NCBI GenBank assembly: GCA_963818475.1
Contig: CAWFSF010000002.1
Span: forward strand, 480,001-544,000
Length of the DNA: 64,000 nucleotides
Direction: 5' to 3'
From: Nitrospirota bacterium
GTDB taxonomy: Bacteria > Nitrospirota > UBA9217
Part shown: positions 972 through 60,653 of the stretch, in pieces
Layout: every line of letters starts with the position of its first letter
Position numbering within the stretch: the stretch's first letter is position 1
Notes under the pieces: model-generated
Database searches by the model: none
What the model saw: the letters and a program-made list of their open reading frames with translations, nothing else
Told to the model about the DNA's origin: nothing
Program-made: the position numbers and the translations under genes

Positions 972-1128
972 CGTTTCTCCCTTTAATGAACGTATTCGCT
1001 GCAGCTTGACCTTCGAAGCTGTTTGATGGCTGCCTTTTGTGGCGTGTTATTGCAACCTCTCCTTTTGGGTAATGACCAAAATCAACAGCTTGTCGCTGGA
1101 TCAAGATGCGGTCTTTATCCTAAAAACG

Positions 1129-1272
1129 GCATTTGGACACGGAAGAATCGGAAACATCTGATTAACGCGGATAAATTCTAAAGCAAAGCATTCACCTATT
1201 GGGTGAACTTCTTATAAAAGAACTAATCCGCCGTTATCCGGCTCTTATCCGTGTTAATCCGTGTCCAAATGC
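1129..1272. repeat. MITE-like inverted-repeat element, copy 1
   Basis: 15-bp terminal inverted repeats GCATTTGGACACGGA / TCCGTGTCCAAATGC; internal hairpin TTCACC-TATTG-GGTGAA; near-identical inverted copy at 60314-60475. Confidence 0.85.
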
Positions 1273-1284
1273 TTTTTTTCAGGT

Positions 1285-17267: not shown

Positions 17268-17756
17268 TCATTGACCGCCCCTTTCGCTGTTCTCCACCAC
17301 GACATCCTTCCTTCGAATATAGACCTTCTTATCAACAGACGCATGCAGCGCGCCGTCGGCATCAACGAGCTCAACGAGATAGGACCGCTCGACGGACGGC
17401 GAGGCTCCGGCCGCAGCCTTGATGACAGCTACCTCTTCTTCGGTCAGAATAAACTGCGCATACAACGTGCCTTTCCCCGGCCGCTTGAATCTGATCGTAG
17501 CCGCCTTGTCCCACACCACATACTCTGGTCCAAGTATCTTCATCAGCATGATCATATAGATGGGATCGACCGCAGCGTACATGCTGCCGCCGAAGATCGT
17601 GCCCACAATGTTTCTCGTCCTCCAGCTTAACGGCACCTTGATGCGCACTTCGCGCCAGTCAGACGCGATATAGGTGATGCGCGCACCCGTGCCGCGATAG
17701 GCGGGAAAGAAATTGAATCCCCAGCGCGTGAGCGTTGTTGACAGCGATTCCGGCAT
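17268..17756 (-). CDS. Hotdog-fold thioesterase-like protein (DUF4442/YiiD-like)
   Basis: NFFPAYRGTG, GTIFGGSMYAAVDP, VWDKAATIRFKRPG. Confidence 0.88.
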   Translation of the reverse strand: MPESLSTTLTRWGFNFFPAYRGTGARITYIASDWREVRIKVPLSWRTRNIVGTIFGGSMYAAVDPIYMIMLMKILGPEYVVWDKAATIRFKRPGKGTLYAQFILTEEEVAVIKAAAGASPSVERSYLVELVDADGALHASVDKKVYIRRKDVVVENSERGGQ

Positions 17757-17844
17757 GGTGTGCCCCTTCCCCTGTTGACCGACTTTACCGAACGGCGCCC
17801 GATGGAGCATCAATAAACCTGCAAACGGTAAGGGCAAGAATATT

Positions 17845-17985
17845 TCTCGCAAAGCTCGCAAAGAACGCAAAGGGAACCTTGAGTCAAAATCTTTTCCGGT
17901 TTAAAACCAAAACGCAAGCCGTGGTTTAGGATTTTCTTGGCGTCCTTTGCGGCTCGCTTAGAAGCGCCTACTTTTGGTTGCGAGA
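17845..17985. repeat. 9-bp-periodic inverted-repeat element with a 23-bp insertion in its right arm
   Basis: Left arm TCTCGCAAAGCTCGCAAAGAACGCAAAG; right arm CTTGGCGTCCTTTGCGGCT[23 bp]TTGCGAGA. Confidence 0.8.
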
Positions 17986-18080
17986 GACGCCTTTGGTTCC
18001 GGCTTATCCGGGTCAGGATAAAAGAAAGCCCATGGTATTTCATCGCCATGGGCTTTTCGTATTTGATGCGAAAACGGAGA

Positions 18081-19442
18081 TTACGCGATGACCGGAAGCT
18101 TTGCCAGCGATTTTTTGATGTCCTCTTCCGGATGCTCGTGGTCCATCAGCTTGCCTTCGCGATAGTCGGCATAGGCCTGGAGGTCCAGGTAGCCATGGCC
18201 GCTCAGGTTGAAGAGGATCGTCTTCTCCTTGCCCTCTTCCTTGGCGCGGAGCGCTTCGTCGATGGCCGCGCGGATCGCATGGGCGCTTTCGGGCGCCGGT
18301 ATGATCGCCTCGGTGTTCGCGAACTGCATGGCTGCTTCGAACACCGCGGTCTGGTGATAGGCCTGTGCTTCGATGAGCTTGTCATGGTACAGCTGCGAGA
18401 TAAGCGGCGAATCGCCGTGATAGCGCAGTCCGCCGGCGTGGATGCCGGACGGCATGAAGTCATGGCCCAGGGTATACATGGTCATCAGCGGCGTGAAGCC
18501 TGCCACATCGCCGAAGTCATACCGGAACTCGCCCTTGGTGAGCGTCGGGCAGGAGGTAGGCTCAACAGCAATGATCCGCACGTCTTTCCGGTTGCCCTTG
18601 ATCTTGTCGTGCAGGAAGGGGAAGGCGATGCCGGCGAGGTTGCTCCCGCCGCCGCAGCAGCCGATCACGATGTCCGGGTAGTCGCCGACTATCTCAAGCT
18701 GCTTCTTTGCCTCGAGCCCGATCACGGTCTGGTGCAGGCAGACATGGTTCAGGACCGATCCGAGCGCGTAGTTCGTGTCAGTGTGCGTGGCCGCATCCTC
18801 CACCGCCTCCGAGATGGCGATGCCGAGGCTGCCCGAGTTGTCCGGGTCGAGCTCGAGGATCTTCCTGCCCGAGTTCGTCGTGTTCGACGGGCTCGCATGC
18901 ACCGTGGCGCCCCAGGTCTCCATCATGATCCTGCGGTAGGGCTTCTGGCCGTAGCTCACCTTCACCATATAGACCGTGACATCGAGGCCGAAGAGCTTGC
19001 CGGCCAGCGCCATGGAGGTGCCCCACTGACCGGCGCCGGTCTCGGTCGCAATGCGCGTCATTCCCGCCTTTTTATTGTAGTATGCCTGGGGGATCGCGGT
19101 GTTCGGCTTGTGGCTGCCGGCGGGGCTTACGCCCTCATATTTGTAGTAGATCTTCGCCGGCGTGCCGAGCAGCTTCTCGAGCCGGTGAGCGCGGAACAGC
19201 GGCGCAGGCCGCCAGAGCGAATAGATGTCGAGCACCTCTTCGGGGATATCGATCCAGCGCTCCTGCGTCATTTCCTGCTCAATGAGCGCCATGGGGAAGA
19301 TGGGGGTCAGGTCGTCGGGTCCTACCGGCTGCTTCGTGGCCGGATGCAGCGGTGGCTTCGGAAGGTTCGGCATGTCCGCCATGATGTTGTACCACTTGGT
19401 CGGAATCTCTTTATCAGAAAGAACGATCTTGGTCTGTCTCAT
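18081..19442 (-). CDS. trpB2: TrpB2-type tryptophan synthase beta-like PLP enzyme
   Basis: [37 protein letters not shown]. Confidence 0.95.
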
Positions 19443-60097: not shown

Positions 60098-60313
60098 CAC
60101 TGACGCCCCGCATTAATTCAGCATCTCCCCATACTCCTCCGGACATAGGTTCCGGAGGAATACCCAGGTCTTTATCGCTGCATCCCGCTCTTCCCGTTCA
60201 ATGCTCGTAAGCAGCGCCATCGCCTCCTTGCCGTCAGCCGACTCGTGACCGTCTCGGGCACCGGGCTTGACGGGTTGACTTATTGCCCACCCCTAGTCTT
60301 TAACCTTAAAAAA

Positions 60314-60475
60314 GCATTTGGACACGGATTAACACGGATAAGAGCCGGATAACGGCAGATTATTTCTTTTATAAGAGGTTCACCCAATAGGTGAATGCTT
60401 TAGAATTTATCCGCGTCGCTTAGAAGCGCCTACTTCTGGTAATCAGATGTTTCCGATTCTTCCGTGTCCAAATGC
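60314..60475. repeat. MITE-like inverted-repeat element, copy 2 (inverted, with 23-bp insertion)
   Basis: Reverse complement of 1129-1272 plus the insert CGCTTAGAAGCGCCTACTTCTGG at 60417-60439. Confidence 0.85.
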
Positions 60476-60653
60476 CTTTTTTAGGTTTAACACTATTTGG
60501 ACCTCCCTCTCTTGCGCTGTATCCCGCATCATCCGCCGCGTCATCCGCTGCCTGGCCGGTGGTATAATTACTTAGGAGTCCCTTTTTCCCACTCTACTGT
60601 TCGGAGCGGTGAACCGCGAAGACTGAAAAGAGGAGGATCTCAGGAGGTGGCGA

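Follow-up and report, generated by a model that had tools for sequence, protein, structure and literature searches.

A sequence of 23 bases, CGCTTAGAAGCGCCTACTTYTGG (written as a consensus with Y at base 20, where C and T vary), which lies in the arms of MITE-like repeats of a Nitrospirota bacterium, is best explained, with a probability of roughly 0.4, as a small mobile element, self-contained and non-coding, whose copying or transfer takes place in trans. The 23-mer enters DNA precisely after a T, without duplication of its target; it lands almost only in MITE-like arms or in the loops of short palindromes, and it is then carried along as its host MITE multiplies. Its cutting and rejoining may take place on single-stranded DNA, through the action of a nuclease that recognises hairpins, for which an enzyme of the HUH kind (like RAYT or an IS200-type enzyme) is one candidate and an enzyme of another family a second. 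Taken apart from the question of how it moves, the conclusion that the 23-mer is an independent and precise insertion is very probable.

The insert and its hosts

Within the window (the whole stretch of DNA that was analysed, 64,000 bases in length, G000:C2:480001-544000, where G000 denotes the genome of the window), the 23-mer matches only at the two places given in Table 1 when up to three mismatches are allowed, and two such matches appeared in none of 100 dinucleotide-preserving shuffles of the same DNA. The original prediction had these two copies agreeing at 22 of 23 positions and lying between Ts with no target duplication; both the identity and the flanks, with a T on each side of each insert, are as it described them.

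Table 1. Inserts and host elements located in the window
Feature	Position	Strand	Basis
23-base insert, T-form CGCTTAGAAGCGCCTACTTTTGG	17955..17977	+	sequence; empty relatives of host B
23-base insert, C-form CGCTTAGAAGCGCCTACTTCTGG, site 1 of host family A	60417..60439	+	sequence, family alignment
Host element B, MITE-like, limits approximate	17840..17992	+	sequence, arm pairing, relatives
Filled copy of host family A, 182 bases, with ends CCTTAAAAAAGC...GCCTTTTTTAGG	60304..60485	-	sequence, alignment
Host family A, empty copy, 165 bases, flanks TTTAT / TTCAT	1119..1283	+	sequence, alignment

The insert at 17955 comprises a stem of CGCT (bases 1-4) and AGCG (bases 9-12) around the loop TAGA, followed by the tail CCTACTTTTGG; across copies, the stem reads CGCY/RGCG, is 4 bp long (4-5 bp at most) and is confined to the 5' twelve bases. 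A double variant, CGCCTAGAGGCG, in which T4C and A9G together preserve the stem, was found in 19 copies from nine genomes (seven copies in five genomes, ten in two others and a further two copies), and single changes of the same pair are rare (seven in all: A9G, T4C and A9T twice each and T4A once), in searches at up to two mismatches that bias the sample towards near-consensus forms and in which copies from the same lineage are not independent events. Seven of the nine copies in the Methylobacter record are of the double-variant form, and a form of the 23-mer in genome G013 with a loop of three bases, one base shorter, retains a CGCC/GGCG stem. The 4-bp stem is maintained by compensatory change under selection. 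Two alternative mini-hairpins had been proposed for the insert: CGCTT/AAGCG survives in its outer four pairs, by virtue of the compensatory variant, and AGAAG/CTTCT does not, being broken in a lineage that carries T19>G (seven or eight copies in four genomes).

On the reverse strand the same bases read CCAGAA-GTAG-G-CGCT-TCTA-AGCG, that is, an unpaired GTAG, a single G and then the hairpin. The 23-mer itself displays neither the terminal inverted repeats nor the target-site duplication of a MITE, and Rfam returned four sub-threshold matches in region 17700-18150 (the best at 21.8 bits, against a gathering score of 135) and none in region 60200-60600. Two shortened forms occur elsewhere in the genome: a 21-base form with two tail bases missing (C6:1807866), and a lone 12-base hairpin without the 11-base tail, CGCTCAGAAGCG (C6:64663), which follows ...ttctccgtgt in an arm of CTCCGTG units and may be a truncated copy.

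As for the hosts, element B pairs a left arm at about 17843-17876 (tctcgcaaagctcgcaaagaacgcaaaggg) with a right arm at about 17936-17992 that is split by the insert, and it has about 20 relatives, partial or whole, in G000. Family A possesses both the terminal inverted repeats and the target-site duplication of a MITE: its termini are CCTAAAAA... and ...TTTTTAGG, its duplications are of five bases and AT-rich, a feature of the host (for example ATAAT, ATTAT and TTCAT), and the filled copy in the window is flanked by TTTAA at 60299-60303 and 60486-60490. The two hosts had been called unrelated, which is correct for their sequences but not for their architecture, which is common to both and consists of inverted arms made of short tandem units. 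These arms are tandem arrays of 8-10-base units (ATCYGCG, CTCYGYG, TTTGCG and others), and many units of the form TTATCCGYG presumably resemble a DnaA box. Some further hosts are short palindromes without homology to the MITE arms, in which the insert occupies the loop or the 3' edge of the loop (for example cccctcctattt^taggagggg and ccccacagtct^ctgctgtgggg, with the site marked by ^). The paired tandem-repeat ‘global regulator binding sites’ described in Geobacter metallireducens (Aklujkar 2009, PMC2700814) have the same arm architecture as the hosts, though they do not resemble the insert: their inverted arms contain three to five tandem units of 7-9 bases. The 23-mer is absent from the searched parts of two Geobacter genome papers (PMC2700814 and PMC2996986, with 12 of 19 and 12 of 15 supplementary files).

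Other repeats are found next to these hosts. Directly after host B, at 17993-18032, lies a further short repeat (ggttccggcttatccgggtcaggataaaag...), which also stands alone at three other places in G000 and beside the same type of host in other Nitrospirota records. An abundant repeat (...gtcattgcgaggagcg...cgcggcaatctcg...) adjoins or interrupts several arms that bear the 23-mer (C2:107200, C5:575500 and C6:189200 of G000), and in one case begins exactly at its 3' end.

Genome-wide, the 23-mer is not limited to its two copies in the window, as a search of the kind that the original prediction called for made plain: 37 copies are present in G000 at up to four mismatches, and 35 at up to two mismatches of the Y-consensus (24 exact, eight with one change and three with two). 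It occurs in 14 of 41 related genomes, all from the window's own family (G000 and 13 of the 24 others), and in none of the 16 genomes from other families of the phylum. A scan with one genome per species returned at least 115 loci with the exact 23-mer; by record title, 80 listed loci divide into 44 from Nitrospirota, 31 from Geobacterales, Desulfuromonadales or ‘Deltaproteobacteria’, and five from other records that, among the matches listed, include Methylobacter tundripaludum SV96 and a Dongiaceae MAG. Five whole records from that scan contain from six to 28 copies each. A scan of metagenomes found the 23-mer in at least 121 stretches, and a scan of 2.9 million viral contigs gave no match. 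As far as the sequences tell, the 23-mer is conserved letter for letter across bacterial phyla.

Filled and empty sites

A comparison among relatives, from which alleles with and without the insert might be expected, yielded precise examples of both. The sister copy that had been offered as the empty counterpart of the insert at 60417 is indeed present in the window, reads ttatccgcgt^taatcagatg and differs by exactly 23 bases with unambiguous placement; its empty site 1 falls between 1165 and 1166 (gatta^acgcgg on the plus strand). The claim that removal of the insert at 17955 restores pairing also holds, in that removal in silico allows both arms to pair straight through the site (probability of being unpaired, 0.01), and four empty relatives of host B elsewhere in G000 read cctttgcgcct^ttgcgagagacgcc. 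Zero-gap empty relatives were found for at least 12 further host contexts, and for five contexts, among the matches listed, there were none.

In many host families, the difference between a filled and an empty copy is exactly 23 bases, with no direct repeats bracketing those bases and no target duplication. One Geobacteraceae record carries filled and empty copies of a single host family side by side, and in that family the insert lies before the last, second-last or third-last unit of the arm, depending on the copy. In public sequencing runs, host B is very abundant, mostly without the 23 bases, and many contigs continue without the insert after 17951; these contigs, which hold at most 0.20 of the sampled words, are other copies of host B, and none bridges the orthologous locus.

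An ancestral origin, in which the 23-mer was part of a MITE superfamily from the beginning and the shorter forms arose by precise deletion, is largely refuted already. The single architecture common to all hosts speaks for it, but the insert is found at varying unit positions and, in one family, at two sites; lone exact copies stand amid many diverged empty relatives; and there are no direct repeats around the 23 bases that could drive their deletion. Such a history is scarcely credible.

Family A allows the question of independent insertion to be followed within one set of copies. Among 41 aligned copies, ten are filled at site 1, one is filled at the mirror site of the other arm (aatccgccgt^tatccgg) and empty at site 1, and the rest are empty; an eleventh copy filled at site 1, a truncated element, lies outside the ten aligned. 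On a poorly resolved tree of the 24 closest copies (159 columns, with the insert columns removed), the filled state requires at least seven changes of state, and grouping the ten site-1 copies together is rejected (AU test, p 0.005, for a group chosen after the alignment had been seen). Because the resolution is poor, the alignment short and the group post hoc, the tree demonstrates repeated gain, loss or conversion without distinguishing among the three.

Conversion is central to an explanation that dispenses with a dedicated enzyme, according to which the 23 bases spread between arms by gene conversion, or by quasi-palindrome or replication template switching, followed by amplification of the MITE. 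The scatter of the filled state over the family-A tree is what ectopic conversion would give; in addition, the second family-A site mirrors the first, two elements have the insert in both arms, and the searches for an enzyme (described below) were all negative. Set against these points are the 247 contexts, among the matches listed, in which unrelated units have only a T at -1 in common, together with boundaries that are identical to the base everywhere and hosts that are short hairpins without homology to MITE arms. Moreover, in the elements with an insert in both arms the two copies differ, and site 1 is empty in the family-A copy that has its insert at site 2. Spread without an enzyme of its own is an unlikely account of the 23-mer.

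Target rule and orientation

The sequences that flank the insert were collected from 153 sites (in G000 and the species scan), which reduce to 139 distinct contexts, and from metagenome loci that add 108, for a total of 247 contexts among the matches listed. Base -1 is T in 238 of the 247; base -2 is C in 123, G in 76, T in 37 and A in 11; and base +1 is C in 121, T in 107, A in 17 and G in two (C or T in 228), all among the matches listed. Base -3 is mostly a pyrimidine (123 of 139 and 93 of 108 contexts, again among the matches listed). The target can be written as Y-B-T^Y, and CT is the pair most often found ahead of the cut. The T or CT that precedes the insert (CT in 123 of 247 contexts, among the matches listed) is on the strand opposite to the GTAG. 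That the T at -1 belongs to the target follows from the empty family-A sites, in which both Ts are kept; and for one of the host families, the base at -1 is A in most empty copies and T in the filled ones, which fits a requirement for T. The description of the 23-mer as ‘a parasite of a parasite’ stands in this sense: it is a separate insertion nested in MITE-like arms, in 247 contexts among the matches listed, with precise filled and empty alleles.

The insert also has a fixed orientation relative to the host arm. Of the 37 copies in G000, 31 have the partner arm upstream of the insert, one has it downstream and five are not assignable, and in those 31 copies the TGG end of the 23-mer faces the near end of the host arm. 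Two elements have an insert in each arm, both pointing outwards and carrying different variants.

A fixed orientation, and a position always within the arm and one to three units from its end, would be natural for a functional module that serves the host MITE (one that binds a protein or bends the DNA between the transposase-binding units, for instance) and is kept by selection, and both the presence of filled family-A copies at what are now 11 loci and the letter-level conservation across phyla point in the same direction. A module of this kind leaves unexplained, however, how the same 23 bases entered unrelated arms. In every host family the empty copies are in the majority, the offset from the core of the unit varies, and there is no promoter-like placement or preference for gene starts among the 37 copies in G000 (14 point at a gene start and 23 at a gene end). 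Selection on such a function is not a likely explanation.

Several further properties of the target were considered with respect to how a site might be chosen. Complementarity of the flanks to parts of the 23-mer is weak (2.29 of 5, against 1.5-1.9 in controls), and the insert shows no preference for positions predicted to be single-stranded in the folded host (mean unpaired probability of 0.39 at the site and 0.43 around it). There is no replication-strand bias (13 plus and 13 minus copies in negative-skew DNA, five and five in positive-skew DNA) and loop base 7 does not covary with target base -2 (the 20 copies with A7 have G in 11, C in six, T in two and A in one). Pairing of the tail with a downstream CCAAAG proved not to be general (19 of 139 contexts on the right and 13 of 139 on the left, among the matches listed). 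In two Nitrospirota records (L058 and L117), the 23-mer follows a CT that lies two bases 5' of a GTAG-tagged hairpin of another kind (GTAGTGGGCCGG...CCGGCCCAC); this is the same position at which a RAYT cleaves 5' of a REP (PMC8266576).

Candidate enzymes and related elements

The original prediction regarded the insert as the footprint or minimal passenger of a recombinase, of IS110 or HUH type. If it were such a remnant, its source would be a full-length IS (IS110/IS1111-type or IS200/IS605-type) that targets the arms. The lack of target duplication suits such a descent, as do Geobacter IS elements that lie at a fixed distance from paired tandem-repeat sites (PMC2700814). No long element with halves of the 23-mer as its ends was found in G000, however, where 12-base halves (with up to one mismatch) gave 16 and 29 lone matches, none of them bounding a long element; the viral contigs mentioned above contained no match; and within the 23 bases there is a single hairpin, not a pair of ends. 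Nor was a divergent master copy found: a relaxed hairpin-plus-CTAC motif gave only chance matches beyond the known copies. Both the footprint and the notion that the 23-mer is the end of a full-length IS fare badly on this evidence, and derivation from such an element is very improbable.

The excision of IS110- and IS200-type elements is seamless, and IS110-type elements require a double-stranded circle; for these reasons, and because the targets share nothing beyond Y-B-T^Y, an IS110-type origin is unlikely. IS1111/IS110 elements that insert in transposon inverted repeats or REPs (such as IS4321 and IS5075 in the ends of Tn21) are 1.2-1.5 kb in length, coding, and sequence-specific in their targets. 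The 23-mer is like those found in Tn21-type ends in that it is a parasite of the arm of another mobile element, in fixed orientation and without duplication, and unlike them in that no element with 23-mer ends was found in G000.

An enzyme of the HUH kind would be the nearest known to a hairpin-recognising, strand-specific nuclease-ligase that acts in trans, and the HUH mechanism itself is put forward tentatively. The part of the original prediction that named this type agrees with the anatomy of the insert (no duplication, a hairpin, GTAG and a T/CT target) and disagrees with the genes, in that no HUH gene lies beside the copies and genome G082, which carries the 23-mer, is without a Y1_Tnp match. 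There are 11 Y1_Tnp matches in G000, and none lies within 2 kb of any 23-mer of that genome. Two of them are classical RAYTs (C5:67248-67814 and C6:1262359-1262943, of 180 and 184 residues), each flanked by its own, different GTAG REPs in the form of inverted, GTAG-tagged palindromes on each side; these REP types are of low copy number in the genome, and across the 41 genomes the distribution of their orthologues does not match that of the 23-mer. The remaining Y1 proteins of G000 have 260-337 residues and a C-terminal helix-turn-helix. Eight diverged Y1-HTH proteins of 258-330 residues (C6:903290-904291 and seven paralogues) have inverted ends of their own, gtaagtaacaacgtcccc, and one Y1-HTH protein is weakly similar to the DnaA DNA-binding domain, below the Pfam cut-off.

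Across the 41 genomes, Y1_Tnp is present in 32, irrespective of the 23-mer. Genome G010 has 33 Y1_Tnp matches and no copy of the 23-mer, and G082, for which completeness is not stated, has 28 copies (15 of them exact) and no Y1_Tnp match; neither the Y1-HTH proteins nor the group II intron reverse transcriptase of G000 was matched there. Clusters of three 23-mers in G082 were considered as a possible enzyme locus and set aside, the flanking genes being ordinary. At 115 loci (among the matches listed), the DNA up to 300 bases from the 23-mer contains no Y1 open frame, and the surroundings of 120 metagenome loci (among the matches listed), taken out to 2.5 kb, show no enrichment for any mobile-element gene; the only recurrent neighbours there are a sensor-/histidine-kinase-like family (12 loci) and an ABC-F ATPase (three loci). 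Since copies can multiply with their host MITE, these absences weaken the case for a Y1 enzyme and do not exclude one.

To judge from their sequences, the multi-copy coding elements of G000 (at least 85% identity) appear to include a 419-residue transposase of HTH and integrase type (13 copies), a reverse transcriptase of group II intron type with 444 residues (seven copies) and a two-frame integrase-type IS (six copies). An enzyme of the second type figures in a further alternative, namely RNA-templated insertion, in which a reverse transcriptase would extend a nick after T on a short RNA template (target-primed synthesis). The fixed sequence, the fixed length and the start after T are in keeping with such a process, as are the seven copies of that reverse transcriptase in G000, and RNA could tolerate both the C/T variation at base 20 and the T-G intermediates of the stem. 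All 37 copies in G000 lie in repeat arms, though, with no separate template locus seen, and G082 and G084, with 28 and seven copies of the 23-mer, gave no match to the reverse transcriptase. Insertion from an RNA template is quite improbable.

Among established repeats, the closest comparison is with REPs. In one source (PMC8266576), REPs of 23 nt (for example in S. maltophilia), REPs with 5-bp stems two bases from GTAG (for example in Marinomonas), a REP loop with pairing end bases, and RAYT cleavage at CT on either side of the hairpin are all on record, and GTAG REPs inside other palindromes, with hundreds of empty targets, are on record in another (PMC3733652). Against this background, the 23-mer resembles the small group-3 GTAG REPs associated with RAYT (PMC8266576) in its length of about 23 nt and in a GTAG one base from a short perfect stem; it resembles GTAG REPs further in loop end bases that can pair, a compensatory stem, CT or T at the cut and the lack of target duplication, and, as for some REP families (PMC3733652), in being nested in other palindromes. 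It departs from the published RAYT model in having its T/CT on the strand opposite to GTAG and in having the 3' boundary of the GTAG strand at the foot of the stem. Other differences from GTAG REPs are that no RAYT gene is flanked by the 23-mer, that the 23-mer is present in a genome without a Y1_Tnp match, and that it occurs as single units, not inverted pairs, in only tens of copies per genome. REPs are usually species-specific, whereas the 23-mer is identical across phyla.

At about 100 bases or more, members of the IS200/IS605 family and their non-coding derivatives (PATEs) depend on a different hairpin at each end, together with guide tetranucleotides. The 23-mer is like them in strand- and orientation-specific insertion 3' of a short motif, without duplication and in a hairpin-dependent manner; in contrast to them, it has one conserved hairpin and specifies only a T plus a weak Y-B. 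A literature string search with 17 bases of the 23-mer returned no match, and further literature searches returned nothing on point. The 23-mer is a small REP-type hairpin repeat nested in MITE arms, unusual both in its letter identity across phyla and in having no associated transposase; it looks like a REP and probably works like one, and is not filed as a REP here.

REPs are thought to be mobile; to our knowledge, few clean before-and-after insertion sites are on record for single units of REP size, and little is established about the rules by which such units integrate. The 23-mer provides hundreds of natural filled and empty pairs, together with a target rule, an orientation rule and a compensatory stem, and by means of these pairs and regularities the integration of hairpin mini-elements becomes directly testable. 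For annotation, an indel of 23 bases divides MITE families and can cause repeats to be misclassified. Identity across phyla, combined with restriction to transposon arms, is unusual for REP-like repeats and suggests either that an enzyme is widely shared or that horizontal spread is frequent. It is possible, if doubtful, that the 23-mer is a true hyperparasite of MITEs that crosses phyla, and the smallest self-defined mobile unit yet seen whose filled and empty sites are clean, ranging from Nitrospirota to Gammaproteobacteria and served by an enzyme yet to be found, not a Y1 transposase, that recognises transposase-binding arms; if that is true, a unit of 23 nucleotides would be travelling between bacterial phyla.
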